DNA of 64,000 bases from an uncultured Verrucomicrobiae bacterium (GCA_963789335.1 CAWBKH010000005.1:273948-337947); one strand, 5' to 3'; counted from the stretch's first letter, positions 20,774-48,604 are shown. Made by a program: numbers and translations. The notes: generated by a model not told the origin, from the sequence alone.

Positions 20774-23314
20774 ATGAACACCCATTGGAGAGTTTTAATC
20801 TTGGCTGCCGTGTGCATTAGGCTATGCGGCAATGTGACACAGGCTCAAGTAATCAACTTCGACGTGCCCGGCGGCGTTGCTGGTGCTGCAAATTATTCCG
20901 GTCAAGGCGCTTATTCTGATCCGGGCAATAATTATTGGAACCCGGTTGTGGGGAACGGCACTACCGGCGCTACACTCTTATCTGATGGGATCACTGCGAG
21001 TCCCATAACACTGACGTCCCAGATGGGTGGCACCTATGGCACTCAGGGAACGCAAGGCACTCCGGCGGCGTTGCAGCAACCCTACCAGTACAACAATGCT
21101 GTTCTCAGGACAGACACGCTTAATAATGTTCCCGCTGGCACCTATAACCTGTATCTTTATGGTATAAATAATACCGGCACGCGGGGAACAACCTTTACGG
21201 TATCCACTCCGTCGATGTCTCTCCTCAACCTGAGCACCAGCAACACACCAGCGAGTTTAACTACCTTCATATTGGGTGCTGATTATGTCATCTTCAGCAA
21301 TGTGGTCGTGGGGACAGCGGGGGCGATTACCTTTACTTGGACGGCCAACCCCAATGTGACTGTCTCGGGAAACAACGAAGGCGACTTCAACGCCCTTCAA
21401 CTCGTGTTCGTTTCAACCAACACAGTGGTCACCAATCAGTCTGGTCCGAATTTTGGTCCGAACGTTTACTTGTTCAGTCCTTCCACGCCGACAACCACCA
21501 TCCAGAATACTCTCAACACCCTTTTTGGACAACAGAACAATGTGAACTCGAGCCAATTCGACGCCAACCGGTACGCCGTTCTTTTTGAACCCGGAACGTA
21601 TAACGTGACCATTAACATGGGCTACTACATGCAAATACTCGGGTTGGGCCAATCGCCCGATGGTGTCACCATCAACGGGGGGCTGCAATGTTTCAATTTT
21701 GGCGGTCAGTCCACCCAAAATTTTTGGATGTCCGCTGAGAATATGGCCGTGAATCCCAGCGGGAGCAGCGGCACTATGACATGGTCCGTTTCGCAGGGCA
21801 CCTCCCTTCGCCGTATGCATATCGAAGGCAAATTGAACGTGTCAGATGGAACCTATTGTAGCGGCGGTTTCCTGGCCGATTCCAAGGTGGATTCCACAAT
21901 CAGCTCCATTTCCCAGCAACAATGGCTCTCCAGAAATGACATTTGGGCAAACTGGTCCGGTCAGGTATGGAACATGGTGTTTGTGGGCGTTTCCAATCCG
22001 CCTTCCGGAACCTGGCCCGGTTCCAAATACACGATCATCACCAACACACCATTGATCCGGGAAAAGCCCTATTTGTACGTTGATAGCAGCACCAATTTCT
22101 TCGTCATGGTGCCGAATCTTGAAACCAATAGTTTGGGGACCAGTTGGGCCAGCGGACCAACTCCCGGAGTTTCAGTCCCCATCAGCCAGTTCTATCTGGC
22201 GCAACCGGGCGTGGACAATGCCGGAACCATTAATGCCGCGCTGAGTTCGGGGATGGACCTGATATTAACCCCGGGGATTTATCATCTGACCAACAGCATT
22301 CTCGTGACGCAGCCGGATACGATTGTGATGGGGCTGGGATTCCCTACGCTGGTGCCTGCCAATGGAAATCCCGCCATGGTGATCTCGGATGTTGATGGCG
22401 TGAAGGTGTCAGATATTTTATTTGATGCCGGAACCACCGCCTCACCTGCATTGTTGGAAGTGGGGCCTCCGGGCAGTTCGCTGGATCATTCCGCGGACCC
22501 CATTTGTCTGTATGACGTTCACAGCCGGGTGGGTGGACAGTTCGCTGGCACCACCACCACCTGCTTCACGATTAATGCCAACAATGTCATCGGTGACAAC
22601 ATCTGGTTGTGGCGGGCGGATCATGGCACCGGCGTCGGCTGGACTCAGAATGCATCCAACAACGGCCTGGTGGTGAATGGCAATAACGTGACCATCTACG
22701 GTCTTTTCGTCGAGCATCACGAGCAGTATCAGACGTTGTGGAATGGCAATTGGGGACGGGTTTATTTTTACCAGTCCGAATTGCCCTATGACGCGCCGAA
22801 TCAGAGCGCCTGGACGCACAACGGCGTGAACGGTTATGCGTCCTACAAAGTTGCGGACGGCGTCACCAGCCATCAAGCCTATGGGCTTGGCATTTATGGT
22901 GTGTTCCAAACTTCAAACGTAAAATGCTTTAATACCATCGAGACGCCAACCAATCAGCAAGTCAACGTGCATGATATGATAAATGTTCTTATAGAAGCGC
23001 AGACCGGCAGCGAAATGACTCATATCATCAACGGCACTGGCGCAACGCTCACTACCGGTGGCCAGGCAACGGCCAACTATCTGTGGCAGAATCCGGCCTT
23101 TGCCATCAGCGCGGGTCTGGATAACACCGGAACGAACATCGCCATTACCTTGCCCACCGAGTCGTGGCATACTTATCAACTACAGTACAAGAACGCAGTG
23201 ACCGATCCAAGCTGGTCGAATCTTGGCAGTCCTTTCGGAGGGAACGACACGTTGGAGACAGTCACTGATTCAACTACGGCAACCAACCGGTTTTACCGTG
23301 TCATGGCCCGGTAA
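20774..23314 (+). CDS. Secreted right-handed beta-helix glycosidase-like protein with shared C-terminal domain
   Basis: Signal peptide. FGPNVYLFSPS...RYAVLFEPGTYNV...ILGLGQSPDGVTING...IWLWRADHG...LFVEHH pattern. From memory this matches a family often annotated 'coagulation factor 5/8 domain protein' or 'adenylyl cyclase' with a pectate-lyase-like fold. Tail ends NRFYRVMAR. Confidence 0.65.
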   Translation: MNTHWRVLILAAVCIRLCGNVTQAQVINFDVPGGVAGAANYSGQGAYSDPGNNYWNPVVGNGTTGATLLSDGITASPITLTSQMGGTYGTQGTQGTPAALQQPYQYNNAVLRTDTLNNVPAGTYNLYLYGINNTGTRGTTFTVSTPSMSLLNLSTSNTPASLTTFILGADYVIFSNVVVGTAGAITFTWTANPNVTVSGNNEGDFNALQLVFVSTNTVVTNQSGPNFGPNVYLFSPSTPTTTIQNTLNTLFGQQNNVNSSQFDANRYAVLFEPGTYNVTINMGYYMQILGLGQSPDGVTINGGLQCFNFGGQSTQNFWMSAENMAVNPSGSSGTMTWSVSQGTSLRRMHIEGKLNVSDGTYCSGGFLADSKVDSTISSISQQQWLSRNDIWANWSGQVWNMVFVGVSNPPSGTWPGSKYTIITNTPLIREKPYLYVDSSTNFFVMVPNLETNSLGTSWASGPTPGVSVPISQFYLAQPGVDNAGTINAALSSGMDLILTPGIYHLTNSILVTQPDTIVMGLGFPTLVPANGNPAMVISDVDGVKVSDILFDAGTTASPALLEVGPPGSSLDHSADPICLYDVHSRVGGQFAGTTTTCFTINANNVIGDNIWLWRADHGTGVGWTQNASNNGLVVNGNNVTIYGLFVEHHEQYQTLWNGNWGRVYFYQSELPYDAPNQSAWTHNGVNGYASYKVADGVTSHQAYGLGIYGVFQTSNVKCFNTIETPTNQQVNVHDMINVLIEAQTGSEMTHIINGTGATLTTGGQATANYLWQNPAFAISAGLDNTGTNIAITLPTESWHTYQLQYKNAVTDPSWSNLGSPFGGNDTLETVTDSTTATNRFYRVMAR

Positions 23315-23700
23315 TCGCCGCTCCCGGCCTTCGTCCAGCCGGGATGGTAAAGGAGAATATTCGGGCGATTGGCCGCTGTCTTTAATGGTCGGCAGGTCCG
23401 CTTGAGCCGGCTGTGGCTGATTGTTTCGTTGCATCAAAAGGCGGGGAATTTTGTTCCAAGACGTTGCAACGGAACGATTTTGAAATTGGCTGGAACAGCA
23501 AGAATACTCAATGTTCGTAATATTTTGGATTATTTCGGATAAATTTGTAAAAAAATGTTGACAAAAATTGAAAAAGATAACAAAGTGATGAATAAACATT
23601 CACATAGTGAAGGGTGCTTTAATGGCCCGTTGTGCCTTTTGTCAATTGAAATGTCAGTGTTGAATTGTCAAATATAACCGAAAACAAACATATTGGTGTT

Positions 23701-26700
23701 ATGAAAACCCCCGAAACGTTCCCTCAACCTCGAAAACACTCAGTACTGGCTTGGTTCAGCAAAGCCGGTGTGAGATTTATTGCGACCGCGTGCGCCGCCA
23801 TCGCGGTCTGCTTCGCTTTGACCAGCCACGCAACAAATATCCTGGTCAATCCAGGCTTTGACGCAATCCCAGGCTTTACTGGTTGGTCGGCGCACACCAC
23901 GGAAACTTGGAACATCGCCACTCACACCGATCAGTATATCAGTGCGCCCAATGATTTGTGGATGCAGGGTTTGTATGGAAACGGCGGCGCGAGTCTAAGT
24001 TCTTACGTTACGTATGCCTATCAGACTTTTTCCACTACGCCGGGTAATACCTATACTGCGGATGCTCATTTCTCGCAGTATGTTCTGTTTTTTGGCGTCG
24101 CCGGCACGCCAACCGAGGGTGGTGATGACCTAACTGCCAATACCAGCCCAACCGGCGCTAGCGGTCTGTTTGGTAACAATGACGCCACGAGTGGTTACTA
24201 CGAAGATGGATGGGTTGAAGTTGCGTTCTTGGATGCATCCAGCAATATCCTGGCGGATTACAGATCAATCATCATCAATCCGGCATTCGTGCAGAGTCTC
24301 ACGAACAACCCAAGCGATATAACCTCGCAGGTAGTACCCTCTGTCAATACCAATTACCCCCCCCCGGCAATGGTTACCAATGTTTATCTGAATTGGATGG
24401 ATGTTCAGGTGACCAACCAATACAAGCCGAGCACACTCGTGCCAAATACCGATCCTGATCCGCTGAACCCGTACTTTCCAGGAACGGCACAGATTACCAA
24501 TACTCTGGGAGCCGGTCAGGTCATGGTGGCCCCGGCTGGTGCGGTAAAAATAATATTCGCCCTGTGTGTATGTCAGACGAGCTACGCGTCGGGCGCGCCT
24601 CACTGGGATGATTGCAGCTTGAACCAGGTGAGCGGATTCCAGCCAGATGTGATCAGCGGAGTTACGCCCAGCAGCGGGGTGATGTTAACCAACACCAGCC
24701 TTACGTTCAATGTCCAGTCGCCTGTCGGAACCACCACCGCGACCAATGGCATAAAAGTGGTGGTAAATACAACCCCTGCTAATAGTACCGGTTTGCCGAC
24801 AGGTGGCGTTGACGAATCGAGCAGCCTCGTATTCTCTGGAAACAGCGCCAACTGGAACGTGACTTTGCCGGGATTTACCACCCCCAACAACGTTTATACC
24901 ATCAGCATCTCGGCCACCAACAGCGCCGGCTTGGTTGCCACGGCCAGCAGTCGGTTCGATACCTTCTCCCCCACCAACTTTGTTGTCGAGTGTGAAGACT
25001 ACGACTACAATGGCGGCCAATACATTCAGAATCCGATTCCCACCAACAACACCGCGGCAACCAGCTACTGGGGAAGGTCTGGCATACCAGGCACTGACTA
25101 TGACATCTTTTCCGGCGGAGTTGCGGGTGGTGGCAATAACTTACAGCCCAATTATCCCAACCGCGGCACAAATACCGATGCGGCTTGGCAGATACCGAAT
25201 GACCCTGAACTGCCACTATACGTTGCGCAAAGCAATAACGCCATTTATAATGTAACCATAGCCTACAACAATCCGGGTAATTGGTACGAATACACCCGGA
25301 ATTATCCAACCGGCAATTATATTATATATGCGCGCATGTCCGCGGGTAACGGTGCGGGTTCACAAGAATATCTCAATCGGTTGACCGGCGGGAATGGTAC
25401 CCCAACTCAGACGACCACCAATGTCGGGACGTTTCTCTTCAATAATAACGATTATACCTCCTATTATTGGGTGCCGCTACAGGACGCTAATGGCAATACG
25501 CTCATCGTGAGCTTGCCGGGCGGCCCGCAAACCCTCCAATTGGTCAGCGGCACCCCCACCGCCGGTTGCAACGTGAGTTACTTCATGTTCGCCCCGTTGC
25601 CGCCCAATGGATTGCCCCCGGATATAAAAAATCTAAACCCGGCGCTTAACACAGGTGGGAACGTATTTGTGACTACTAACAAATTAACCTTCACGGTCAG
25701 TTCTTACAACAATACAATTGCGACCAGCGATATCCACACGTATTTGAACGGCACGGATGTCTCGGCCTCAGAAACCTTCACGGGTTATAACACGAATTGG
25801 GCGGTGAGTGTTCCGCTGTCATTGCCCGCCAATCAGGTGAATCAGACCTTCGGCATAAGCGCCAAGGACTCCAAGGGAAATACCAACGGTGTTTCTGGGT
25901 CCTTTGACACCTTCAGTCAGAACAACTACATGATTGAAGCGGAGGACTTTGACTTCAACGGCGGCCAGTTTATTGACAACCCGTTTCCAACCGCGCCGCT
26001 TTATGTTGCCGTCAACAGTTATGGCGTTGCACCCGCGGGTAATCAGGCCAATCTTTCCGTGCTGGGCGTGGATGTGACCACTACCAACGTTACCACTGCC
26101 GAGACGTATCTTTACCGGATATATGATAACAATGTTGGCACAGAAGTGACCTCGGACTACCTCCGTTCGAAGTTTTATAATATTTCGGGCGGAAACGGAG
26201 AGCCGGCTAACACGACCAATAGCGACTATGACGTAGGATGGTGGCCGCCGGGGACGTGGCTGAATTATACCCGCACCTTCCCCACCGGTACTTATAATGT
26301 CTGGGGCCGGCTGGCTAGTGGCGGAGCCTATACTAATGCCACGCTGAGTTTGGTGACTACCGGGCAGCAGTTGGGCACGTTCGCTGATCCAAACGCCAAC
26401 GGGTTCCAAAACTGGCATTGGGTGGAGATGATGAGCAATGGCGCTCCGGCAGTAGTCACGCTCGGCGGCGTTGAGAAATTAAAGGTGACCGCTCCCCCAG
26501 GGAACGCCACAGGAAGCCTCAATGCGAACTTCTACATGTTTGTGGCGACCGTGCCCGCCCCGGTTCTGACGGTTTCCAGGACCGCAAGCACTCTCTCCAT
26601 CACGTTCGCCACTTACACTGGAAACACTTATATCGTCCAATGGACTGGCAGCTTGAGCGGCACGCCCACGTGGACGACGTTGACCACCATTTCTGGTGAC

Positions 26701-26775
26701 GGCTCTAACCATACCGCCACGGACACGGTGGGCGCATCACCGCGGTTTTACCGGGTGGAAGTAACAACCCCGTAA
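23701..26775 (+). CDS. Large secreted non-catalytic carbohydrate-binding-type protein (CBM4_9-like N-terminus; two Ig-like plus CBM6/35-like units; shared C-terminal domain)
   Basis: Signal peptide. NILVNPGFD start typical of CBM4_9-like modules. Duplicated FVVECEDYDYNGGQYIQNP / YMIEAEDFDFNGGQFIDNP modules. Tail ends PRFYRVEVTTP. No hydrolase motif seen. Confidence 0.65.
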   Translation: MKTPETFPQPRKHSVLAWFSKAGVRFIATACAAIAVCFALTSHATNILVNPGFDAIPGFTGWSAHTTETWNIATHTDQYISAPNDLWMQGLYGNGGASLSSYVTYAYQTFSTTPGNTYTADAHFSQYVLFFGVAGTPTEGGDDLTANTSPTGASGLFGNNDATSGYYEDGWVEVAFLDASSNILADYRSIIINPAFVQSLTNNPSDITSQVVPSVNTNYPPPAMVTNVYLNWMDVQVTNQYKPSTLVPNTDPDPLNPYFPGTAQITNTLGAGQVMVAPAGAVKIIFALCVCQTSYASGAPHWDDCSLNQVSGFQPDVISGVTPSSGVMLTNTSLTFNVQSPVGTTTATNGIKVVVNTTPANSTGLPTGGVDESSSLVFSGNSANWNVTLPGFTTPNNVYTISISATNSAGLVATASSRFDTFSPTNFVVECEDYDYNGGQYIQNPIPTNNTAATSYWGRSGIPGTDYDIFSGGVAGGGNNLQPNYPNRGTNTDAAWQIPNDPELPLYVAQSNNAIYNVTIAYNNPGNWYEYTRNYPTGNYIIYARMSAGNGAGSQEYLNRLTGGNGTPTQTTTNVGTFLFNNNDYTSYYWVPLQDANGNTLIVSLPGGPQTLQLVSGTPTAGCNVSYFMFAPLPPNGLPPDIKNLNPALNTGGNVFVTTNKLTFTVSSYNNTIATSDIHTYLNGTDVSASETFTGYNTNWAVSVPLSLPANQVNQTFGISAKDSKGNTNGVSGSFDTFSQNNYMIEAEDFDFNGGQFIDNPFPTAPLYVAVNSYGVAPAGNQANLSVLGVDVTTTNVTTAETYLYRIYDNNVGTEVTSDYLRSKFYNISGGNGEPANTTNSDYDVGWWPPGTWLNYTRTFPTGTYNVWGRLASGGAYTNATLSLVTTGQQLGTFADPNANGFQNWHWVEMMSNGAPAVVTLGGVEKLKVTAPPGNATGSLNANFYMFVATVPAPVLTVSRTASTLSITFATYTGNTYIVQWTGSLSGTPTWTTLTTISGDGSNHTATDTVGASPRFYRVEVTTP

Positions 26776-26818
26776 GGGGACTGCTGGAATGTGAAGTGAT
26801 TTGAGAAAACAACCGGGT

Positions 26819-26843
26819 CGGCACCGAAGTAAAATCGGTGCCG
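26819..26843 (+). terminator. Hairpin after the binding-protein gene
   Basis: cggcaccga-agtaaaa-tcggtgccg, a 9-bp stem. No clear T-run. Confidence 0.3.
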
Positions 26844-26913
26844 GCCTGTTGGCCGGGTAAAAAGTTAATAAGAATAAGTTGAAAATTGAGCCGTTAATTG
26901 TAGATTTCAAGTA

Positions 26914-27852
26914 ATGAAGACAAATGAGCCAAAAATGAAGGCCGCTTTCCGACGTAATATGCAAGGCGATTGCGACGTGGAACAGAAACAAAGATTTCGT
27001 TCAGCCGGCTTTACCTTGATCGAGTTGCTGGTGGTGATAGCCATTATTGCCATCCTGGCGGCGATGCTGTTGCCGGCTCTGGCCAAGGCCAAACAAAAGG
27101 CCCAGACCATGCAATGCCTGTCCAATGAGAAGCAGTTGTCGCTGGCGTGGTTGATGTATGCCAGCGACAATAGCGACTATCTGGTGGGGAACCGGGGCCT
27201 TGACGGTCAGCCCCCTAATCTGAACGAAAACCCCCTGACCGACGTCAATCTCCAACCCGGAGGGATATATGCTCAATGGTGTCCCGGCAACATACAGATA
27301 TTGGGATGTGACATTAATCAAGACAAATGGATTGAGGCGGGGATGCTCTATCCCTATCTCAAGAGTCTTCTGGTTTACCACTGCCCGGCCGACAAGACGG
27401 TGGTTCCCCGTTCGGCGGCCGCGTTTGCGCAAAAACCCGCTCTGCGCACCTATTCATTGAATTGCTGGGTGGGTTCCGTGAATAATAATGGTGCTGCTCA
27501 AGCTTGGAATGGGATTCAAAACTACATCGTTTATACGAAGCTCGCGAATATGGTCAACCCCGGCCCCAGCAAGACTTTTGTTTTTATCGAGGAAAATCCT
27601 GCCAGCATTGACGACGGCTATTTTGCCGTGGATCCAACCAATCCGAACGAGTGGTATAACAGTCCGGCGTGTTTGCATGGCAATTCCAGTGTGCTGGCGT
27701 ATGCCGATGGACATGCGCAGGCGCGCCTGTGGACGGACAATAACATGATCCACGATGTGAATCCACAAATTCCACCCGGAGACAATGTTCCGGCTACCGC
27801 CGGCAATCAGGATTTGCCTTGGTTGATTTCAGTTACCACAGCTCATAAATAG
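26914..27852 (+). CDS. Prepilin-type N-terminal cleavage/methylation protein of the H-X9-DG class (DUF1559-like)
   Basis: G|[24 protein letters not shown] pilin leader and helix. C-terminal [13 protein letters not shown] is an exact H-X9-DG. Confidence 0.85.
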
Positions 27853-28135
27853 GCAAAATTCAGTCCACAGATTTTTTAGCTTCCAGGTTTATGATGTTTG
27901 TGGGTGATTTTGTTTGTACTGGAAGCTGTGGAATCGGTTCGGCTAGGGACCTGGCATTCTGCCGGTCGGTAGTTGGGGGCGGGATGAAAATGGTCAGCGT
28001 CCGTGGACTAAACACCCGGTGTGATTTGCAGATAACAAACCCGCGTTCCTTTGCAGAGGCTTCCGCGCCGTTTTATTTCCCTGAGCAGTCACCAACACGA
28101 TAACCAGTCCCGTTTAAATTCAATCCATAATTGTT

Positions 28136-29170
28136 ATGTTTCACAGACCTTGTTTATCTTCCGCTGGTCAGACCAAATGCGTGTCGCGACTGCTTGTTGT
28201 CCTGTCCGGTTTTACTATCCCAATGTTGTTGTGCCAGGTCGCGCTGGCCGACACGAACATCGTCTGGAGCGACGAATTCAATGGCACATCTGTAGATTTG
28301 ACCAAATGGACATTTGAAACCGGCAACAATAACGGCTGGGGTAATGGCGAGCTTGAGTATTATACCGCCCGCACAAACAACGCTTATGTCAGTAATGGTG
28401 TGCTGCACATCGTGGCGCAACAGGAATCCTACGGCGGTTACAGTTTTACTTCCGCTCGCATGAAGACCCAGAACCACTACAATACACCTGTGTACGGTCA
28501 ATTTGAATGGCGCGCCAGACTGCCCTCCGGCGTCGGCATGTGGCCGGCGCTCTGGCTGTTGGGGTCGGATTACCCATCGGTTGGCTGGCCTGCCTGTGGG
28601 GAGATTGATGTTGTGGAAAATAACGGAGCTTCTCCGACATGGGTGCAGGGAAGCCTGCATTGGGGAACCAGCGGTGAAGTCAGCAGAACGGCCACGTACT
28701 ATTTTACCAGCCCGGACTCAGTTACCAACTGGCACACTTATGATTTGATTTGGAGGCTCGGTTCATTCCAGTATTTTGTGGATGGCAATCTTTATCAAAC
28801 CCAAACCGGTTTGACTTCGCCTTTCAACGCGCCATTCTTTTTCATAATGAACCTGGCGGTGGGGGGCCAGTATGTTGGCAGTCCTAGCGTCGGTACAATC
28901 GAGGCTGGCACCTCTTTTCCGCAGGAGGTGCAGGTGGATTATGTGCGGGTTTATGAAGATACCGCGCCCATGGTGATTTCATTTGCGCCGCAGCCGGATG
29001 GAAGTTTGCAATTGAGCTGGCCGACCAATATCGTCTGCCATTTGCAGGCGCAGACCAATTCCGTGGTTGGCGGCAACTGGACTGATGTTGCCGGTGGCGC
29101 CGCCAGTCCGTATGTTGTAATTCCCGATCCCAATCAGAGTGCCGTCTATTACCGTCTGGAATCGCCTTAA
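28136..29170 (+). CDS. GH16 beta-1,3(-1,4)-glucanase-like enzyme with shared C-terminal domain
   Basis: WSDEFNG...WGNGELEYYT...GEIDVVE catalytic motif. Signal peptide. Tail ends AVYYRLESP. Confidence 0.85.
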   Translation: MFHRPCLSSAGQTKCVSRLLVVLSGFTIPMLLCQVALADTNIVWSDEFNGTSVDLTKWTFETGNNNGWGNGELEYYTARTNNAYVSNGVLHIVAQQESYGGYSFTSARMKTQNHYNTPVYGQFEWRARLPSGVGMWPALWLLGSDYPSVGWPACGEIDVVENNGASPTWVQGSLHWGTSGEVSRTATYYFTSPDSVTNWHTYDLIWRLGSFQYFVDGNLYQTQTGLTSPFNAPFFFIMNLAVGGQYVGSPSVGTIEAGTSFPQEVQVDYVRVYEDTAPMVISFAPQPDGSLQLSWPTNIVCHLQAQTNSVVGGNWTDVAGGAASPYVVIPDPNQSAVYYRLESP

Positions 29171-29273
29171 AGCAGCGACCGGGACGTATTTGCCCTTAAT
29201 AAATTCCAGCCCCACGCCAGGAAGTACCTTGCGCGAGGGATGGAAATTTGTATTTTGGGAAGCGTAGCCAATT

Positions 29274-30728
29274 ATGATATACCGACTTATTTCCACCATT
29301 ATGCTGGGCCTGTTCATGGGCGCAACTGCGCCGGCTGAAGAGGCGGGAGCGACTCAAACCCGGGCTGCCGATTTTGCCACGAGGCCGGTTGTCGTTTACG
29401 TAACTGCCAAAGCCACGGGACAGCGGCTTGCCCGGACTGGTGAACTGCATTTTATTGATTTGCCGCAACCCACCGAAAAGCAACAGTGTGTTTTCGTGGA
29501 TCCGTCCAAGAAATTTCAGACGGTGCTTGGCATTGGCGGCGCTTTGACGGATGCCGCGGCAGAGACTTTTTACAAGCTTCCGAAGGAAAAACAGGAACAG
29601 ATTCTAAAGGCGTATTACGATGTGCGGGACGGCATTGGCTATACATTGGGACGCACCTCCATCAACAGTTGCGATTTCTCCAGCGAGAGCTACACCTATG
29701 TCACCAACGACGACGCGACCCTGGCCAGTTTCAACATCAGTCACGATTTGAAATATCGCATCCCGTTCATCAAGGAGGTGCTGGCGACCGCCGGCCGGAA
29801 AAACTTCACCTTGTTTGCCAGCCCGTGGAGTCCTCCGGCTTGGATGAAGGATAACGACGACATGTTGCATGGAGGCTCCTTGAAGCCCGAGTTTTACGAC
29901 GCCTGGGCCAGGTATTACGTCAAGTTCATCAAAGCCTACCAGCAGGCGGGCGTTCCGATCTGGGGGGTGACGGTGCAAAATGAACCGATGGCGGTGCAAC
30001 CGTGGGAATCCTGTGTTTACACGGCCGGGGAGGAACGTGATTTCGTAAAGAATTACCTTGGACCTATCATGGCCAAAAGCGGCCTCAAAGATAAAAAAAT
30101 CCTGATTTGGGATCACAACCGAAGCATGATGTATCAAAGGGCCGAAGTGGTTCTGGATGATCCCAATGCGGCGCAATACGTGTGGGGCGTGGCCTTTCAT
30201 TGGTACGTGGGCGATCACTTCGAGAACGTGAAACGTGTTCAGGAGGCCTTTCCCAAAACTCACTTGTTGTTCACCGAAGGTTGCAATGGTCCCTTTGACC
30301 AGGCGCAGATCCATGACTGGCAGTGGGGTGAAATCTATGGCAGATCCATGATCCACGATTTCAACAATGGCGCCGTTGGCTGGACGGACTGGAACGTGTT
30401 GCTGGACCAGGAGGGCGGGCCGAATCATGTTCAAAATTATTGTTTCGCCCCGATTATCGCCGACACCAAGACGGGGGAACTGACTTACATGAACGCCTAC
30501 TATTACCTCGGCCATTTTTCCAAATTTGTTCGTCCGGGTGCGCGGCGCATTATCAGTTCTTCAACCGTTGACGGCCTGTTGACGACTGCGTTTGAAAACA
30601 AGAATGGGCGGATTGCGGTAGTTGTCATGAATTCATCAGATACCGAACAGCCGTTTTTTCTGTGGCTGAACGGCAAAGCCGCAAAAACCAGCAGCCCTCC
30701 GCACTCCATCATGACCTTGGTCATCTAA
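29274..30728 (+). CDS. GH30 family glycosidase (glucosylceramidase / beta-1,6-glucanase-like)
   Basis: GIGGALTDAAA, ASPWSPPAWMK, WGVTVQNEP (acid/base Glu) and LFTEGC (nucleophile Glu). Confidence 0.85.
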   Translation: MIYRLISTIMLGLFMGATAPAEEAGATQTRAADFATRPVVVYVTAKATGQRLARTGELHFIDLPQPTEKQQCVFVDPSKKFQTVLGIGGALTDAAAETFYKLPKEKQEQILKAYYDVRDGIGYTLGRTSINSCDFSSESYTYVTNDDATLASFNISHDLKYRIPFIKEVLATAGRKNFTLFASPWSPPAWMKDNDDMLHGGSLKPEFYDAWARYYVKFIKAYQQAGVPIWGVTVQNEPMAVQPWESCVYTAGEERDFVKNYLGPIMAKSGLKDKKILIWDHNRSMMYQRAEVVLDDPNAAQYVWGVAFHWYVGDHFENVKRVQEAFPKTHLLFTEGCNGPFDQAQIHDWQWGEIYGRSMIHDFNNGAVGWTDWNVLLDQEGGPNHVQNYCFAPIIADTKTGELTYMNAYYYLGHFSKFVRPGARRIISSSTVDGLLTTAFENKNGRIAVVVMNSSDTEQPFFLWLNGKAAKTSSPPHSIMTLVI

Positions 30729-30775
30729 ACCCATATTAAGTGATGCGAGTTGATGTTGAGAATGTTTGCGCCACC

Positions 30776-31636
30776 ATGAAAACAGCCTGGCAACAAACCG
30801 TGTTGACTCAGATTAAACGATTGCGTTCCTTGACTGGCACCGCGATGACCGTATTGGGATTGCTCGGCGGTGGAACGCTCACGGCCTGCGGCGGCTGGAC
30901 GCTCGTATGGAGCGACGAGTTTAACGGCGCCGCGGTTGACACGAATCATTGGAGGTTTGAGACAGGAAATCATCACGGCTGGGGCAACCACGAACTCGAG
31001 TATTACACCGGACGTTCCGAAAATGCCTACGTCAGCAACGGGTTGCTCCACATTGTGGCCCGAAGGGAATCAACCAACGGGTTTTCCTACACCTCGGCCC
31101 GGATGAAAACCGAGGGATTCTTTGCCAAAAAGTATGGGCGGTTTGAGTTCCGCGCCAAACTTCCCGCGGGTCAGGGCTTTTGGCCGGCCATCTGGCTGAT
31201 GCCCGAAAACTCCCATTATGGTCGCTGGCCGAACTCTGGTGAAATTGATATCGTGGAAAACAGAGGCTCCCATCCCGGACAAGAAGGAGGAACCATTCAT
31301 TTTAGCGGCCCCGATGGGAATCACGTTTACCATGGAAAGACCTACCACTTTCCAAGCGGGGAATCGGTCACGGGTTTTCACATCTATGACCTGATTTGGT
31401 CAACCAATTCAATCCAGTGGTTCGTGGATGGCAAGCTTTACGAAACGCAGTCCCACTGGTCCACGGCGAGAGCTCCCTATCCTGCGCCTTTTGACCAACC
31501 TTTCTATATCATCATGAATCTGGCCGTTGGCGGGGACTACGGAGGTGATCCGGACCAGCACACGGTTTTCCCCGGCGAAATGGATGTGGATTACATTCGT
31601 GTCTATGACCACGTCGCGCCCGATTCAGTTCGGTGA
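30776..31636 (+). CDS. GH16 glucanase-like lipoprotein
   Basis: Lipobox-like LTAC; WSDEFNG...WGNHELEYYT...GEIDIVE. Start set at ATG 30776 (the track ORF starts at 30740). Confidence 0.85.
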   Translation: MKTAWQQTVLTQIKRLRSLTGTAMTVLGLLGGGTLTACGGWTLVWSDEFNGAAVDTNHWRFETGNHHGWGNHELEYYTGRSENAYVSNGLLHIVARRESTNGFSYTSARMKTEGFFAKKYGRFEFRAKLPAGQGFWPAIWLMPENSHYGRWPNSGEIDIVENRGSHPGQEGGTIHFSGPDGNHVYHGKTYHFPSGESVTGFHIYDLIWSTNSIQWFVDGKLYETQSHWSTARAPYPAPFDQPFYIIMNLAVGGDYGGDPDQHTVFPGEMDVDYIRVYDHVAPDSVR

Positions 31637-31870
31637 TTTGAAGTCGCTTCTGGATCGCAACCGAACGCAAATCCTCCCGAATTGGATCGGTCGCTTTGGA
31701 AAATTATTTTCAAAACATGAAGAGCATCTGGCTAAATCAAATAGCCTTTTGATTATACTCAAGATAATTGTTTATCTTCAAGCTTCCTGTGCCACCGGCT
31801 GCGTCTGTCGCCGCGCGGGAAATATTAGAAACCCGATTTGTGTGCTATTTTTCTTTACATTTATTCCGTT

Positions 31871-31890
31871 GTGTGATTGAATAGTCACAC
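31871..31890. promoter_or_regulatory. Palindrome GTGTGA-N8-TCACAC upstream of the GH3 gene
   Basis: gtgtgattgaatagtcacac, about 85 nt before ATG 31975, in an AT-rich leader. Candidate operator; no regulator gene is seen nearby. Confidence 0.25.
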
Positions 31891-31974
31891 ACTGGAAAGA
31901 ATCCGCCCTATGGGGCTAAATCTTCTTATGAAATTATGAAAAATTGTCTAGCAGAACGCCGGTCGGTTGATTTT

Positions 31975-36171: not shown

Positions 36172-36255
36172 CCATCTGAGGGCTTTGGCACGCCAGCCAT
36201 GAAACCGGATTGACCGAAAAATAGTGGCTGGCGTCTTGCTTGTTGGTCGGATTGG

Positions 36256-36678: not shown

Positions 36679-36734
36679 AATGGACGTGGCCAAACTCCCG
36701 ACCCGCTGCGGCTGAGTAGCAATTGCCAGATATT

Positions 36735-38525
36735 ATGCGCCGACCTGCGACCCAATCCAGACCCGCCCGGATAAGCGCAGCCACTCCGGCCATGCCCCGG
36801 TCGCGTTTTCCGGTGTGGCTGATGGCCGCCTTGCTGGGATTGGTAACCCTGGCCCTTTACTGGCCGGCGATGCAGTGTAATTTCATCAACTTTGATGATC
36901 CGGAGTATGTCACTGCGAATCCTCATGTTCAGGGTGGTTTGAACTGGGAGGGGGTGAAATGGGCGTTTTGCAACACGCAACAAGCCGCCTATTGGGCGCC
37001 GGTCCTGTGGTTGTCTCACATGCTGGCTTGGCAATTCTTCGGGTCAAATCCTTGGGGGCATCACCTGATTAATGTGCTGCTTCACGCAGCGAACACGGCC
37101 CTGATTTTTCTCGTTTTTCAACGAATGTCGCGGGCGACTTGGCGAAGCTTTGTGTTGGCGGCATTATTCGGGTGGCATCCGCTCCGGGTGGAATCGGTCG
37201 CTTGGGTCACGGAACGCAAGGATGTGTTGAGCACACTCTTCTGGATGCTGACCCTGTGGGCCTACGCGAAATATGTTGAATCAATCCGAGTTCGGGATTC
37301 AAGATCCAAAGTCTGGTATGGCGCGGCCCTCGTGATGTTTGCGTTTGGATTAATGAGCAAGGCGATGCTGGTGACGGTACCCTGCGTTTTACTGCTGCTG
37401 GACTATTGGCCGCTCCAAAGAGTGACGAGTGACAAGTGGCAGGTGGCAAGCATTTGGCGATTGGTCCGGGAGAAAATCCCGTTCTTTGGCCTGGCAGCAG
37501 TGGCGAGCGTCGTGACTTTCGCGGTGCAGAAGCAGGCAGGCGCTGTGGAGACGGTTAAAAGTCTGCCAGTTGGAGCACGCGTAGGGAACGCCTTGATTTC
37601 CTACTGCCGCTATCTGGGGAAGCTGTTCTGGCCGACGGACCTGGCCGTCTTGTATCCGCACCCCGGGTATTGGCCGATGGAGCAGGTGCTCCTGGCGGGT
37701 ATGTTTTTGTGTAGCATTTCGGTGCTGCTATGGGTGAAGCGGTGGCGTTATCCCTTTTTGCTAATGGGGTGGCTCTGGTTTATCGGGACGCTGGTGCCCG
37801 TAATTCAACTTGTGCAGTCAGGCGTACAGGCGATGGCCGACCGTTTCACTTATGTGCCGTCACTTGGGATATTGATCCTCACAATCTGGGGTATGTATGA
37901 ACTAACCAGGCGGTGGCGTTACCATCAGATTGGATTGGCGGTAGCAGGATTGGCGGCGATTATCTTGTGCATGGCGTTAACGCGGCAACAACTTGGCTAT
38001 TGGAAGGACAGTGAAACACTATTTCGGCATGCGCTTGCTGTCACGGAGAACAATTCGATGGCACGCCTCGACCTCGGCATGGCCCTTGAGACGAAAGGCC
38101 AGTTCGACGAAGCGATCCGCCAATATCAGGAAGCCATCCGCCTGAATCCGGATTACGCCGATGCCCACTTCAACCTCGGCACCGCTTTCGGTCTGAAAGG
38201 CCAACTCGACGCGGCGATCGGCCAATTCCAGGAAGCCATCCGCCTGAATCCGGATTACGCGGACGCCTACTTCAACCTCGGTGCCGCCCTCGACAGGAAA
38301 GGCCAAATTGACGAGGCGATTATCCAATTCCAAGAAGCCATTCGCCTGAAGCCGGATGACGCGGACGCCCACTTCATCCTCGGCGAACTCCTCTTCAACC
38401 AAGGCCAACTCAACGAGGCGATTATCCAATTTCAAGAAGCCATTCGCCTGAAGCCGGATTTCGCCCAGGCACAAACCAGCCTCGCGCGGGCACTGGAAAA
38501 GAAGAATGTTCCATCAGGCCGTTGA
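36735..38525 (+). CDS. TMTC/PMT_2-like GT-C membrane protein with C-terminal TPR array
   Basis: FINFDDPEYVTANPHV...NPWGHHLINVLLHAANT...GWHPLRVESVAWVTERKDVL mirrors the TMTC (DUF1736) pattern. About 10 TM segments, then TPRs. Intact. Confidence 0.8.
   Translation: MRRPATQSRPARISAATPAMPRSRFPVWLMAALLGLVTLALYWPAMQCNFINFDDPEYVTANPHVQGGLNWEGVKWAFCNTQQAAYWAPVLWLSHMLAWQFFGSNPWGHHLINVLLHAANTALIFLVFQRMSRATWRSFVLAALFGWHPLRVESVAWVTERKDVLSTLFWMLTLWAYAKYVESIRVRDSRSKVWYGAALVMFAFGLMSKAMLVTVPCVLLLLDYWPLQRVTSDKWQVASIWRLVREKIPFFGLAAVASVVTFAVQKQAGAVETVKSLPVGARVGNALISYCRYLGKLFWPTDLAVLYPHPGYWPMEQVLLAGMFLCSISVLLWVKRWRYPFLLMGWLWFIGTLVPVIQLVQSGVQAMADRFTYVPSLGILILTIWGMYELTRRWRYHQIGLAVAGLAAIILCMALTRQQLGYWKDSETLFRHALAVTENNSMARLDLGMALETKGQFDEAIRQYQEAIRLNPDYADAHFNLGTAFGLKGQLDAAIGQFQEAIRLNPDYADAYFNLGAALDRKGQIDEAIIQFQEAIRLKPDDADAHFILGELLFNQGQLNEAIIQFQEAIRLKPDFAQAQTSLARALEKKNVPSGR
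38130..38470 (+). repeat. 102-bp tandem units (about 3.3) encoding TPRs
   Basis: Units start at 38130, 38232, 38334 and 38436 (gaagccatccgcctgaa...). Confidence 0.85.
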
Positions 38526-38853: not shown

Positions 38854-41096
38854 ATGCGCCCACCTGCGGTCCAATCCAAACCCACCCCGACGAGCCGAGC
38901 CACCACGGCCTCGGCCCGGCCGCGGTTTCCGGTATGGCTGATGGCCGCCTTGCTGGGGTTGGCGACCCTGGCCCTTTACTGGCCGACGATGCGCCATGGG
39001 TTCATCAATTACGATGACGATATCTATGTCACCGCGAATCTTCACGTCCAACAGGGATTGACGTGGGAAAACCTGAAATGGGCATTTGTCACCCCGGTCA
39101 GTGATAATTGGCATCCGTTGACGATGTTGTCGCACATGCTGGACTGCCAGTTGTTTGGTTTAAAGCCGTGGGGACACCATCTGAGCAACGTATTGCTGCA
39201 CGCGCTTAACACCGTTTTGGTTTTCCTGTTTCTGCGCGGTCTGACTGGTGCGTTCTGGCGGAGCGCGCTGGTGGCGGCATTGTTTGGGTGGCACCCGCTG
39301 CATGTGGAATCGGTCGCTTGGGTGGCGGAACGAAAGGATATGTTGAGCGGCTTCTTTGGTCTGCTCACACTCATTTTTTACAGCCGGTACGCGCAAAAGC
39401 GGTTGAGGAGGGAGTGGCGCGAGCCAACCGCAAAAGCGGCTCGAGTTCCGCCCTTTGGCCCTTGACGATTGACTACGGGCTGGCCCTGATTTTCTTCGCG
39501 CTGGGTTTGATGAGCAAGCCGATGCTGGTGACGTGGCCGTTTGTTCTGTTGTTGCTGGATTACTGGCCGTTGGGCCGTTTTGAACTTTCAACCCGCAATC
39601 CGCAGCTCTCAACCCTTTGGCGATTGGTGCGGGAGAAGATTCCGTTCTTTATTCTCGCGGGGCTGTCGAGCGTCGTGACCTATGTGGTGCAGCAACAGGG
39701 TGGTGCCGTGGTGTCGGGTGAAAACCTGCCACTGGCTGCGCGCGTCGGGAACGCCTTGATTTCCTACTGCCGCTATCTGGGGAAGCTGTGCTGGCCGACG
39801 GATCTGGCGGTGTTCTATCCTCCCTACACCGGGTATTGGCCGCTGGGGGAGGTGCTGCTGGCGGCTGCTTTGCTGGCGGGTCTGTCAGTGTTTTTTTTGG
39901 GGCAGCGGCGGTATCCGTTTTTGCTGATGGGATGGTTGTGGTTTATCGGAACGCTGGTTCCCGTAATCGGTTTGGTTCAGGTTGGCGAACAAGCGATGGC
40001 GGATCGGTACAGTTATCTTCCGTCGCTGGGGGTGCTGATCCTGGCAGTCTGGGGCGCGTACGAACTGACCCGGGGCTGGCGGTATCAGGTGATGGCGTTG
40101 TCGGTGGCGGGTGGGGCGGCGATTATCTTGTGTATGGCATTGACGCGGCAACAATTGGAGTATTGGCAGGACAGTGAGACCCTTTTTCGACATGCACTCG
40201 CAGTCACACAAAACAATCTTCTCGCGCACCTCAACCTCGGCTTCGCCCTTGAGGAGAAAGGGCAAACGGACGAGGCCATCCGCCAGTTCCAGGAAACCAT
40301 CCGCCTGAAACCGGATTCCGCCACAGCCCACTTCAACCTCGGCGTCATCCTCGGAAAGGAAGGACAAACGGACGAGGCGATTGGCCAATACCAGGAAGCC
40401 GTCCGCCTGAACCCGGGTTTCGCCGACGCGCACAACAACCTTGGCAACGTCCTCTTCAAGCAAGGCCAGCTCGCCGCGGCGCTTGGCCAATTCCAGGAAG
40501 CCGTCCGCCTGAACCCGGGTTTCGCCGACGCGCACAACAACCTTGGCAACGTCCTCTTCAAGCAAGGCCAGCTTTCCGCGGCGATTGGCCAATACCAGGA
40601 AGCCGTCCGCCTGAACCCGGGTTTCGCCGAGGCACACAACAATCTTGGCCAAGCTTTCTTCAACCAAGGCCAATTCGACCGGGCCATCGGCCAATTCCAG
40701 GAGACCATCCGCCTGAATCCGGATTTGGCCGAGGCGCACAACAACCTCGGCAATGCCCTCTTCAGCCAGGGCCAGTTCGACGAAGCCATCGGCCAATTTC
40801 AGGAGGCCATCCGCCTCAATCCAGATTACGCCGAGGCCTATTGCAGCTTGGGTCTCGCCCGTTTCAACCAAGGCCGGCTCGACGAGGCCATTAGCCAATT
40901 TCAAGAGGCTGTGCGTCTTAAACCCGATTACGCTGAGGCGCACAACAACCTCGGCAGCGCCCTCGGAAGGGAAGGGCACACGGACGAGGCGATCCGCCAA
41001 TTTCAGGAAGCGATCCGCTTGGAACCGGATTTCGCTGAGGCGCGCAATAACCTCAATCGCGCCCTGAGAATACAGAACGCTGCGGCGGGACACTGA
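38854..41096 (+). pseudogene. TMTC/PMT_2-like membrane-TPR paralog with one frame change (frame 1 to frame 0) between ~39395 and ~39465
   Basis: ORF 38854-39465 matches the paralog N-terminus up to ERKDMLSGFF. ORF 39288-41096 resumes homology at DYGLALIFFALGLMSKPMLVT. Could be real or an assembly indel. Confidence 0.7.
40293..41058 (+). repeat. 102-bp tandem array (about 7.5 units) encoding TPRs; units 40395-40496 and 40497-40598 are nearly identical
   Basis: Period verified at 40293, 40395, 40497, 40599 and 40701. Confidence 0.85.
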
Positions 41097-42027: not shown

Positions 42028-42682
42028 TTATTTCCGCCGACGGATGAAGAAGAGCGGCAAACCCAGAGCCAAGAGCGCCAAGCTGGCTGGCTCGGGCACT
42101 GCTTGAGCAATGGAAACACCATCAAAATAAAATGCTAACGGAGCCGGGTTACCATTATCCTGCGCCATGGTATACACTACGGCGTCTGTGTATCCTGCGG
42201 GCGCGGTCGCCGAAACAGAATATTGGGTCCACACACCGAGTGCCCCATTTATCGTTATCCCAACGGTATTGCCCGGGTTCTCCACGGTGCTCGCACCACC
42301 TAAAGCGGCCGTTTCAAAGCCAAGCTGAAGAAGCCCACCCGCCGTTGTGGCAGCCGCTGTCTGGTAAACCCACGCACTGACCGTATACTTTAGGCCCGGA
42401 GTGACGCCGCTGTCTATTTGATAGGCGCCTGGAGTGGCCCAGCCATCGTTGGCAGCCAAGGCCAAGCCCAAGGAAGTCGGAGTCTCCATTGTACGTGGGC
42501 GATGTTGCAATCAGTCCCGCACTGAACGGTGCCCAACCTTGGTTGACGCCCGCGACGGTTATCGGGTTTGCCGTATAGGGACCGCTAAAATTTGGATCCA
42601 CAATGACCTGGGCCTGTGCGCTGAGTGCGAGTGCTGCAGTCACGCCAACAACACCGGTGATGACTTTAGGGAACATTTTCAT
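42028..42682 (-). pseudogene. PEP-CTERM protein, apparent frameshift near 42480-42510
   Basis: The signal peptide (MKMFPKVITGVVGVTAALALSAQA) is in one frame. The body and the C-terminal VPEPASLALLALGLPLFFIRRRK are in another. Confidence 0.7.
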
Positions 42683-45368: not shown

Positions 45369-45377
45369 TGAAAGCAA

Positions 45378-45978
45378 TTATTTCCGGCGCCGGGAAACTA
45401 TCAGCGCGGCAATGCCAAGCCCGGCCAACGCCAGCGTCGCAGGTTCGGGCACCGCTTGGATGTCATAGACAAACCCGCCGACTTGGCCCTCAGTAGCGCT
45501 GCCAACTCCGCCGGCTCCGTTTAATGATCCCTGCACGGTGCCGCTGCCATCCGCCGTCGCGGTACCGATTAATGTTGCCATAAACAATGACTCCGCCCCG
45601 TCCATTCCCGTCCCAAGCCGCGCAGGCATAAAGCGCCACAGTTTCGCCTGGGGTCAAACCGCTGAAGGTAAAGTTGTGATCATTCGCGTTGTTGCCAAAA
45701 GTGTAGAAGCCGGATTGGGTCAACGGCTCAAGGGTGTTGCCGTTATCATAGACACCAACATTATCAATGGAAAAATCGTAACCCTGCCCGTTGATGTTGT
45801 TGATGCTTGCCGTCGGGGTGTTGGCCAAAAAATTGCCAGTCAGGCCGACCCATCCGGCGGGGACGACATTACCAGTATTGTTGAAGTCGAGTTGGACGTA
45901 AACGTCTGCCCTGGCGCTGCTTGCGGCGAGAAGTCCCATGATTGCTGCGGCCAGGAAAAAATTCATTTTTGTTTTCAT
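45378..45978 (-). pseudogene. PEP-CTERM protein, apparent frameshift near 45560-45600
   Basis: The signal peptide and body (MKTKMNFFLAAAIMGLLAASSARA...AAWDGNG) are in one frame. The tail ...AVPEPATLALAGLGIAALIVSRRRK is in another. Confidence 0.7.
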
Positions 45979-46107
45979 TTGAAAATTAAGGTGACAGCTA
46001 ATTTGTGCTGTTTTTACTACAAACACGGGTGAATGTCAAGGCTTTTTTATCGTTGATCCGAGAATAATGATGCAAATCGTACTGAAAGCACCCACAAGCA
46101 ACTCTAT

Positions 46108-46960: not shown

Positions 46961-48604
46961 TTACGGCGGCTGCAGGCGGAAGAACTGGCTGGTGTTGGTC
47001 GCGGCGACCACAACCTGGTTTTGGCCGTTCATCACCACCGGCACCGGATTATTCGTGCTCCAAACGACAGGCGAAGTCAGATTGGTCGCCGAGGCCAGCA
47101 CAAACCCATCCGGGTAAATTGGCCATGAGAGCAACAGGTTGCCGCCGGAGGGCGCGAGTTTCAGGAATGTTGAGGAAAATTCCCAGGCCAGGGCGTAGGT
47201 TTCCGAATAGCTGACAATGGTTGCGTTGGGAATGCCACCGGCCTTCCAGACCTGCAAGTCGTAGCGGCCGGGCGCGAGTTTCGGAACAAAAATGTGCTCA
47301 ACGTTGTCCACGAGGCTGGTGCTGCTCGCAACGAGGTTGCTGTTGGCGGCGTTGTATAAAAACAGATTGAGATTGTTGATGTTTGTCTGGTTCTGCTGGC
47401 GGTTCCAAACCAGTGTCGCCGTGGCGGTGAAGGCGGCGTTGTTGAAGCCGTTGGTGACGTTGAAATAATAATGATTTATCTCGTCGGAAGCGCTGCTGCT
47501 GGAATTGGTGTTAAAATCCCAGCCGCTCAACTCGCTGATGGTGCCGCTCGCGCCGGCAGGCGGATGCGGATTGCCGGTGGGAACGCTGGTGGCAACGATA
47601 TAACCGTGCTTGCCGCCGGCGAGTTGTTCGTAGGAATTCAAGACATTTAGTATGCCCGCCCCATAACGCGTGTCGAGTGGCGATGGAGGAACGTTCGTCC
47701 ACCCCACGGGTTTGACGGCACCGTTGAGGAGCAATGCTTTCACCGTTCGGATGTCAGCGGCGGAATTGGTCGCGGCGCCACCATCCCCGCGCAATCCCGC
47801 CTGGATCAGAAGCGCCGCCGAGCCGCTGACTTCCGGCGTGGACCAACTCGTGGCGTTTTGGGGCGTGGTGATGTCTGGTTTGGCCCGGCCATTGTCTAAT
47901 GTCGGCCCGTAACTCGACCCGCCGCCGTAATCACCGACGCCGATGCCGTTGTAACACGTCGCCGGCGGACACACGCGCGCCGGAGTGGCCGGAATGTTGT
48001 TGCCCGCGCCCGAAACAAAAAGCGTGTTGTATTGAGCAGCGTAGTTATCGTACGCAGTGTCAATTGCCTCTTGAATGTTCGTTGAGACGCTATTGGTGGC
48101 ATCGGCAAAAACGAAACTCTGATTCACAACGGAATCTTCAATATTGGAAGAAGGCAGTGAAGCGGTATAATTTGTCACGCCGGGAAGAGGCACAGAATAA
48201 AAAATCTGAATGAAATAGTTCGCATCATAATTGTCAACGTGCGCCACATTGGTGGCTACGCCGGATGGCAATCCATAAAAATTCGAGGCTACGTCGTCCG
48301 CGTGTTGTGATTCATCGCCCAAGGCGTTAGGATAATAATTCGTGGAGCCGCTGCTGGTGATGTAGGTAAAAAGATTTGTCGGTTGCTCGACGGTATTGGT
48401 TCCAGGATTTACTTCAAAATACGGCGCGCCTGCTTCCGTTTGCGCGACACGAATGCCGGCGCCATTCAGGTTTGTGGTTACCGTCCGTAATAGCGTGACG
48501 CCGATGCTGTCGAGATAGGACGCGCGGGCAGTCGAGCCTATTTGTATCCCTCCCGAGAGAACAAGCAAAACCCGGATCATTCGCAAACAACGCGCTACTT
48601 TCAT
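46961..48604 (-). CDS. Secreted subtilase-like (S8) protein with shared C-terminal domain
   Basis: Signal peptide. HADDVAS (His region), SGAGNN (oxyanion Asn), ATSWSTPEVSGSAALL (Ser motif). The expected Asp motif reads IRVAQTEAG. Tail ends QFFRLQPP. Confidence 0.65.
   Translation of the reverse strand: MKVARCLRMIRVLLVLSGGIQIGSTARASYLDSIGVTLLRTVTTNLNGAGIRVAQTEAGAPYFEVNPGTNTVEQPTNLFTYITSSGSTNYYPNALGDESQHADDVASNFYGLPSGVATNVAHVDNYDANYFIQIFYSVPLPGVTNYTASLPSSNIEDSVVNQSFVFADATNSVSTNIQEAIDTAYDNYAAQYNTLFVSGAGNNIPATPARVCPPATCYNGIGVGDYGGGSSYGPTLDNGRAKPDITTPQNATSWSTPEVSGSAALLIQAGLRGDGGAATNSAADIRTVKALLLNGAVKPVGWTNVPPSPLDTRYGAGILNVLNSYEQLAGGKHGYIVATSVPTGNPHPPAGASGTISELSGWDFNTNSSSSASDEINHYYFNVTNGFNNAAFTATATLVWNRQQNQTNINNLNLFLYNAANSNLVASSTSLVDNVEHIFVPKLAPGRYDLQVWKAGGIPNATIVSYSETYALAWEFSSTFLKLAPSGGNLLLSWPIYPDGFVLASATNLTSPVVWSTNNPVPVVMNGQNQVVVAATNTSQFFRLQPP

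Follow-up and report, generated by a model that had tools for sequence, protein, structure and literature searches.

To our knowledge, little is understood of the way in which Verrucomicrobiota bring to their surface the large sets of glycoside hydrolases, proteases and adhesins that they produce, and PEP-CTERM is the only C-terminal tag that we know to be catalogued in their genomes. A 64,000-nucleotide stretch of DNA from an uncultured Verrucomicrobiae bacterium (GCA_963789335.1, CAWBKH010000005.1:273948-337947; hereafter the window, to which all coordinates without a locus name refer) raises the question of whether a second such tag exists. An earlier reading of this DNA, made without database searches (the sequence-only reading), had pointed to a similar small module at the C-termini of six otherwise unrelated products and proposed it as an uncharacterised sorting or anchoring tag. 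What is new here is that this module, which we call the tail, is a large and positionally constrained variant of a known fold, for which we found neither a database model nor a published description.

Six C-terminal tails and their family

The translations confirm the six tails at the positions first proposed, each 2-6 residues ahead of the stop codon. The first four are located in a beta-glucan-type enzyme cluster (20774-36171, plus strand; assigned with Pfam). Tail 1 (23102-23311, plus strand; ...NRFYRVMAR) closes the 846-residue product, without Pfam match, of the open reading frame (ORF) 20774-23314, and its orthologous tails in metagenomes share 60-85% identity. Tail 2 (26563-26772, plus strand; ...PRFYRVEVTTP) ends ORF 23665-26775, whose true start is probably the ATG at 23701, giving a 1024-residue product with a signal peptide; the product of 23701-26775 is identical to the cluster representative P0126, in which the profile match covers residues 951-1022 of 1024. 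Tail 3 (28970-29167, plus strand; ...AVYYRLESP) ends a GH16 beta-glucanase (28136-29170) whose Pfam GH16 match is confined to residues 79-249, leaving the tail outside it, and tail 4 (35947-36168, plus strand; ...VRFYRTVLGP) ends a 1411-residue multidomain GH3 (31936-36171) with F5/8-C, CBM6/35, malectin and fibronectin type III (fn3) modules (Pfam, including PF14310 and PF00041). Tail 6 (46964-47167, minus strand; ...QFFRLQPP) ends an S8 subtilase (46961-48604, minus strand), where the Pfam Peptidase_S8 match is likewise confined, to residues 158-317.

Tail 5 (36310-36531, plus strand; ...QCYRFEQNPWR) lies in a 92-residue ORF (36256-36534) that is a 3' remnant, because it has no signal peptide and its first residues, 'YSLYEFEVY', are the final strand of an F5/8-type-C domain that is otherwise lost. 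N-terminal signal peptides were read from the translations of all five full-length tail proteins, such that the original count of five exported products and one remnant holds in both the translations and the ORF list. The exact tail-5 protein is recorded in databases as the cluster representative P0001. At 36172-36534 the remnant overlaps a second reading frame ('...STNLKFIPPS...'), and the short proteins P0005 and P0008 of related genomes begin in this second frame and then run into the tail, which suggests that several relatives have a frameshifted or decayed end of the tail-5 gene.

Judged inside the window alone, the likeness among the tails is weak and only partly convincing: leave-one-out profiles built from the window tails recovered tails 1 and 5 at E ~1e-8 and tails 2, 3 and 6 only at E 0.2-0.8, and did not recover tail 4. 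An independent profile was built from 56 external domain instances, each with <40% identity to every window tail, and run against the six-frame translation of the window. It matched tail 5 (E 1e-18), tail 6 (2.5e-18), tail 1 (2.3e-13; amino acids 785-845 of the stop-to-stop frame), tail 2 (3.5e-12) and tail 3 (4.4e-6), with no other ORF in the six-frame window under E 0.01. Tail 4 was not significant with this hidden Markov model (HMM; E 0.6). It lies in a tight, divergent subfamily (FGFWINGNTGPDY...LTSW...FWVDTNS...FYRVLLGP) whose alignment matches the family profile with 95.9% probability (E 5.3e-9), extending to the C-terminus. Since five tails are matched by the independent profile and tail 4 by profile-profile comparison, we assign all six to one superfamily.

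The family extends far beyond this locus. An exhaustive HMMER search of 1.84 billion cluster representatives (clusters at 50% identity) with the six-tail profile returned 12,822 proteins at E<=1e-3, 418 of them at E<=1e-10. No model in Pfam (models to 2025) or NCBIfam (release 20) covers any tail, nor the eight-copy arrays found in some relatives, and full-text searching of the literature gave no description of the tail domain; in this respect the description of the family as uncharacterised stands. The accession PF26113 occurs in precomputed Pfam lists of the GH16 homologues and was rejected as a model of the tail, as it is not listed for other searched tail fragments.

To assess position and distribution without bias from copy number, we sampled one genome per GTDB species using a degenerate DNA pattern for WP-x4-G[FY]xL[QE]...FYRL, with nothing required downstream. 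At least 120 loci were obtained, and a profile-confirmed domain was present in 115 of the loci listed. Of these 115, about 97 bear the label Verrucomicrobiota, Limisphaerales, Pedosphaera or subdivision 3. The labels of the other 18 are mixed, most of them coming from bulk third-party sets of metagenome-assembled genomes, and could not be verified. The five unconfirmed loci, including Proteobacteria and Bacteroidota records, are chance pattern matches. Collectively, these profile searches and record labels indicate that the tail is a large uncatalogued domain family of Verrucomicrobiota, mainly of Limisphaerales/Pedosphaerales (subdivision 3).

Among the 120 nearest homologues of the window GH16 (58-80% identity), the tail is found at the extreme C-terminus in all, 117 by HMM and three by eye. 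Across 38 orthologues of comparable length, identity to the window protein is 70.7% in the tail and 73.2% in the catalytic domain, with no variation in the tail loop N-I-V-C-H or in the final residues S-P. This near-catalytic identity and these invariant residues argue that the GH16 tail is under strong purifying selection and is not a drifting linker. A carbohydrate-binding module (CBM) between GH16 and tail was considered for homologues of ~540 amino acids and rejected, as BLAST places the extra CBM_4_9 at the N-terminus.

Fold and ancestry of the tail

AlphaFold2 predicted six beta-strands for tail 6 from a 55-sequence alignment (predicted local distance difference test, pLDDT, 88), bearing out the beta-sandwich suggested from the sequence pattern, and six strands in the same order for tail 4 at low confidence (pLDDT 65). 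Foldseek searches of the tail model against the PDB gave no match at E<=1e-3, the best being generic Ig, fn3 and CBM sandwiches with TM scores of 0.4-0.5. Sequence comparison was more specific: a profile search of PDB chains matched fn3 of titin (1.3e-7, summed) and FN3con (0.005), and hhalign aligned the tail family over 67 columns (94.5%, E 7.4e-8) with a bacterial fn3 alignment to which the GH3 of the window contributed its two classical fn3 modules. The tail covers fn3 columns 2-72 of 92 (strands A-F) and ends at the F strand, where 'YYYRV' corresponds to 'RFYRL'; similarly, a classical fn3 HMM matches tail 5 (E 3.7e-5) over fn3 positions 4-71 only. No model of the Pfam fn3 clan reaches any tail at E<=1, and the sole PF00041 match, at GH3 residues 1253-1333, lies upstream of the tail.

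Thus the tail is a beta-sandwich of ~65-70 residues, an fn3 derivative that retains strands A-F and lacks the F-G loop and strand G. As it stops after strand F, the recurring [FY][FY]R-L corresponds to strand F of fn3 and forms the final strand of the whole protein. The AlphaFold2 model, the fn3 alignment and standard fn3 topology suggest that strand F would be a free edge strand, and the same standard topology would place the chain end at the same pole as the N-terminus of the domain. The sequence-only reading had counted identity with a known domain of non-sorting role as evidence against a tag; this objection applies in part, since the tail proves to be a remote homologue of fn3, a characterized fold with non-sorting roles. 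Separately, the CBM32/discoidin domains of a Paenibacillus glucanase/chitosanase (PDB 2rv9_A, 4zxe_A) partly match profile positions 11-60 (E 2.5e-4), through the common pattern 'V.L.W......Y.IQ.S.....W..V'; the match spans ~50 residues of the 72-position profile.

Position, copy number and ending

In the loci listed, the domain lies <=10 residues from the ORF end in 126 of 130 ORFs with a stop codon, and 129 of the 130 have a single copy; of the classical, G-strand-bearing fn3 domains encoded in these loci, 1 of 11 is terminal. Two exceptions carry a confirmed tail domain followed by further sequence, namely L077:887-6169, with 289 amino acids taken as an FGE-sulfatase domain from the ending ...GFRCVRGL, and L041:477-3752, with 771 amino acids. 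The best-scoring 150 of the 12,822 representatives are mostly tandem arrays, because copy scores add up, with 2-13 copies in 134 of the 149 analyzed, and the last copy lies <=10 residues from the C-terminus in 141 of the 149. The proposal that the module always sits at the extreme C-terminus therefore stands for the great majority of sampled ORFs, but not for the internal copies, which occur as upstream members of C-terminal arrays.

Terminal copies end 3-5 residues past FYR, typically as L-[RK]-[KRQ]-P-COOH, with a final Pro in 64 of 124. This ending is basic, with a net charge of +0.65, whereas the corresponding residues of internal copies are neutral (+0.06).

Carriers, cargo and PEP-CTERM proteins

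By a crude rule, a signal peptide is present in at least 61 of 75 sampled ORFs that are complete within their loci, several others being signal-peptide-like by eye, and a lipobox-like motif is found in only 5 of the 75. Export signals thus accompany every full-length tail protein of the window (5 of 5) and most of those sampled, although not every ORF passes the rule. The carriers are otherwise as unrelated as first supposed, with 71 partner Pfam families in 58 longer tail proteins. The cargo families include Ig, LamG and PATR domains, RCC1 and NHL propellers, GH95, GH31, GH52, LRR, FGE-sulfatase, glycoside hydrolases and proteases, as well as multicopper oxidases and tiny non-enzymatic proteins.

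In addition, NCBIfam places the passengers GloVer (TIGR03803) and CoaZ ahead of the tail, and 17 of 120 tail fragments among the matches listed are named TIGR03803-family by JGI. Both belong to the 'choice-of-anchor' passengers, domains that precede the alternative C-terminal anchors LPXTG, PEP-CTERM or type IX secretion system (T9SS) signals (bioRxiv 10.1101/2023.03.06.531300). In these proteins the tail fills the anchor slot behind such passengers.

The commonest single cargo is a secreted protein of ~150 amino acids, composed of a signal peptide, a conserved segment ('Y[ST]IDWFT[IL]DGGGG.S.GG.Y.L.GTIGQPDAG...GG.Y.L.GGFW'), a linker and one tail ending FYRL.KP. It was seen at L027, L029, L030, L050, L067 (5839-6285, plus strand), L081, L083, L095, L098, L109 and L118, and in P0069 the same N-terminal segment is followed by six tails. 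One member (L050) had no Pfam match, and two others had sub-threshold NCBIfam matches only. A 204-residue neighbor family of these small proteins was rejected as an antisense shadow of the gene itself.

The window also encodes three PEP-CTERM proteins, all on the minus strand and all real by motif scan: one at 55966-56787, which in addition exceeds the Pfam PF07589 cut-off (22.3 vs. 20.7 bits), one at 42028-42510, and one at 45381-46026 that is apparently frameshifted. In the last, the signal peptide and passenger lie in ORF 45490-46026, and the PEP-CTERM end (VPEPATLALAGLGIAALIVSRRRK) lies in another frame at 45381-45653. No passenger domain is common to the window's PEP-CTERM proteins and its tail proteins, and PEP-CTERM was found after the tail in none of the 130 sampled ORFs. 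The coexistence of the tail and PEP-CTERM in the window, as first proposed, is therefore borne out, with PEP-CTERM never following the tail.

Possible roles of the tail

Family membership, fold, fn3 ancestry, the positional rule, signal peptides, cargo diversity and purifying selection are established, and a sorting or anchoring role fits these data at the level of architecture. The arrangement is that of a localization module: the position is strictly terminal, the proteins are exported by Sec, the cargo is promiscuous, the family keeps to one lineage and excludes PEP-CTERM, purifying selection is strong, and terminal copies have an ending of their own. The reading that we favor, with chances that we regard as evenly balanced, is that the tail is a shared localization handle, acting as a translocation signal or by surface retention, two roles that these data do not tell apart. 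On this view, the cargo of the Sec-exported tail proteins would fold in the periplasm, and the tail would then be recognized by a common envelope partner, which would either carry the cargo through the outer membrane or retain it at the surface, in a logic resembling that of the T9SS C-terminal domain (CTD). Any step of recognition, translocation, cleavage or anchoring is here an inference.

A more specific version of the localization handle, which we hold to be rather doubtful, is that the tail marks cargo for a pathway, as yet undiscovered, of outer-membrane secretion or surface attachment in Verrucomicrobiota subdivision 3, in which the terminal FYRL-[RK]-K-P copy would be recognized and the upstream copies would be spacers.

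Several observations weigh against a localization handle. The conserved tail residues (W, Y, L, W and FYR) are fn3 core positions, and reveal no surface for recognition. A minority of proteins have 2-13 copies in tandem, such that the domain is not strictly terminal, and internal array copies keep FYRL followed by a short Pro-rich linker; the folded sorting domains known to us are single-copy. Most tails of the window itself are without the basic ending (RVMAR, RVEVTTP, RLESP, RTVLGP, RLQPP). Moreover, an all-against-all clustering of ORFs in the 120 related loci, with tails masked, revealed no recurrent protease, sortase or outer-membrane partner gene around the tail genes. Among neighbors, only DUF1559 prepilin-like proteins (8 loci) and kinases of the histidine and Ser/Thr types recurred, and the co-occurring gene that the sequence-only reading had proposed to look for was not found in these neighborhoods.

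The arrays speak for a second explanation, in which the tail is a non-covalent module of surface retention or self-association that binds a lineage-specific envelope polymer (lipopolysaccharide, capsule or S-layer) or itself and has no role in translocation. Enzymes and adhesins would then be kept on the surface much as by SLH, CWB2 or GW modules, with arrays adding avidity, and this explanation overlaps the anchoring half of the localization handle. C-terminal arrays of 2-13 copies with the last copy near the C-terminus in 141 of 149 are what it would lead one to expect; the basic ending of terminal copies could touch anionic lipid or glycan, strand F would offer a free edge where G is missing, and the family is, by its labels, restricted to one lineage. 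Nonetheless, 129 of 130 sampled proteins are single-copy, whereas wall-binding modules typically come in several copies, no aromatic or charged surface is conserved outside the fn3 core, and no SLH, CWB2, LysM, GW or dockerin model matches the tails. We think retention or self-association without translocation unlikely.

That conservation follows the fn3 core is accommodated by a third explanation, in which the tail is a structural cap, a truncated fn3 that stabilizes or shields the end of multidomain exported proteins without any targeting or binding. Its position would follow from its topology, as without strand G the chain would end at the N-terminal pole and could not lead into a domain of another type. 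Glycoside hydrolases often bear fn3-like domains as accessory modules (the window GH3 has both PF14310 and PF00041), and a cap would need none of the machinery that was sought near the 120 loci and not found. Conservation equal to that of a catalytic domain, with invariant last residues, would however be unexpected for a passive cap, as would its presence on proteins of ~150 amino acids consisting of little else, its confinement to a single lineage despite universal cargo domains, and its absence from paralogues that have a lipobox instead. This, too, we consider improbable.

Lastly, a CBM-like, substrate-binding module that targets enzymes to polysaccharide would agree with the four tails on proteins of the beta-glucan-type cluster, the weak partial match to the Paenibacillus CBM32/discoidin fragment (E 2.5e-4) and the presence of CBM21 and CBM56 among many weak Foldseek sandwich matches (TM 0.45-0.5), but is very improbable given that the cargo includes proteases, Ig/LamG adhesin-like proteins, RCC1/NHL propellers, multicopper oxidases and tiny non-enzymatic proteins, that CBMs are not confined to the extreme C-terminus, and that the two conserved Trp are those of the fn3 core and not of a binding platform.

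A positionally strict family of more than 12,000 protein clusters without a database model provides a testable handle on surface delivery. The tail defines a candidate cargo set and allows a search for partner machinery by phylogenetic profiling, and as a localization handle it would sharpen predictions of where the carbohydrate-degrading enzymes of soil and freshwater metagenomes are located. Even if it were only a structural cap, it would merit a Pfam/NCBIfam entry as a G-strand-less variant of fn3.

Neighboring features of the window

Within the enzyme cluster, three neighbors of the tail genes have no tail. The product of 26914-27852 is a prepilin-type N-methyl protein, that of 29274-30728 a GH30 whose signal peptide is plain, and that of 30740-31636 a GH16 lipoprotein bearing the lipobox LTAC. 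The two GH16 paralogues lie 1.6 kb apart, that at 28136-29170 combining a plain signal peptide with a tail, and that at 30740-31636 a lipoprotein signal (LTAC) with no tail; judging from their sequences, neighboring paralogous enzymes thus carry different terminal devices. Genes of the prepilin-type N-methylation/DUF1559-like kind adjoin tail genes both in the window (26914-27852) and in 8 of the 120 related loci (e.g., L024:3491-4762). This adjacency may be due to chance, because DUF1559-like genes are very abundant in Verrucomicrobiota.

Downstream of tail 5, two adjacent paralogous membrane proteins (36723-38525 and 38854-41096) each combine a multi-helix N-terminal part with C-terminal TPR repeats. 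The second is split between ORF 38854-39465, which corresponds to the N-terminal part of the first, and ORF 39288-41096, which corresponds to its C-terminal part; it is apparently a frameshift or pseudogene.

Comparison with known systems

By descent, the tail is related to fn3 (PF00041), with which it shares the W in strand B, the Y in C, the W in C' and the 'YYRV'/'FYRL' in F. Whereas fn3 is a seven-stranded A-B-C-C'-E-F-G sandwich, the tail has six strands and ends 3-5 residues after F; it falls below all Pfam fn3 thresholds and is terminal in 97%, as against 1 of 11. The motifs SWP, G[FY]xLQ and xNL are specific to the tail family.

On exported proteins of these genomes, the tail and PEP-CTERM take up one C-terminal slot and exclude each other. 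PEP-CTERM proteins, unlike those ending in the soluble folded domain described here, carry a motif of ~25 amino acids with a transmembrane helix and a basic cluster, and are cleaved by exosortase. The identity of tail and PEP-CTERM was rejected, as no tail has a hydrophobic helix and the motif scan was positive only in the three other ORFs. TIGR03803 (GloVer) repeat proteins in the sampled loci end in the tail; TIGR03803 proteins of Chthoniobacter and Verrucomicrobium, in the TIGRFAMs description, end in PEP-CTERM.

Similarly, SLH, CWB2, GW, LysM and dockerins are terminal modules on unrelated enzymes and adhesins, some of them in tandem arrays, for which neither Pfam nor NCBIfam gave a match in the tails. 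The tail differs in being usually single-copy, and as its host is a diderm, export across the outer membrane still needs explaining.

T9SS has been described for Bacteroidota, and the tail occurs in Verrucomicrobiota. The T9SS machinery includes SprA/Sov, PorV and PorU, and its CTD is cleaved off as the cargo is set free or attached to lipopolysaccharide. We know of no SprA, PorV or PorU counterpart for the tail system. The CTD models TIGR04183/PF18962 (type A) and TIGR04131 (type B) gave no match at E<=1 in the six window proteins (Pfam, NCBIfam), nor in the array proteins, and no T9SS CTD was among the 50 matches listed by Foldseek against the PDB. Unlike the seven-stranded CTD, the tail has six predicted strands, descends from fn3 and forms tandem arrays. 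Given the lack of a model match, the strand number, the fn3 descent and the different phylum, the tail was rejected as a T9SS CTD. A single GldK/PorK-like match was likewise rejected as evidence of T9SS and is read as FGE-sulfatase-fold homology, because it coincides with the only FGE-sulfatase Pfam match in the protein set and with the ...GFRCVRGL ending of L077.

In architecture, the two nevertheless have much in common, and the T9SS CTD is the nearest functional analogue of the tail. It is likewise a folded beta-sandwich, of ~70-100 amino acids, found at the very C-terminal end of widely differing proteins that carry Sec signal peptides, with low identity between copies in one genome, and it too coexists with lipoproteins as an alternative localization route. 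Conserved CTD residues specify the fold and not translocon contacts, except for one basic residue near the C-terminus (PMC10994853), and core-like conservation is therefore no argument against a signal. If the terminal copy of the tail were indeed the cargo signal of its own outer-membrane pathway, Verrucomicrobiota would possess a second, independently evolved system of folded C-terminal domains beside the T9SS of Bacteroidota.

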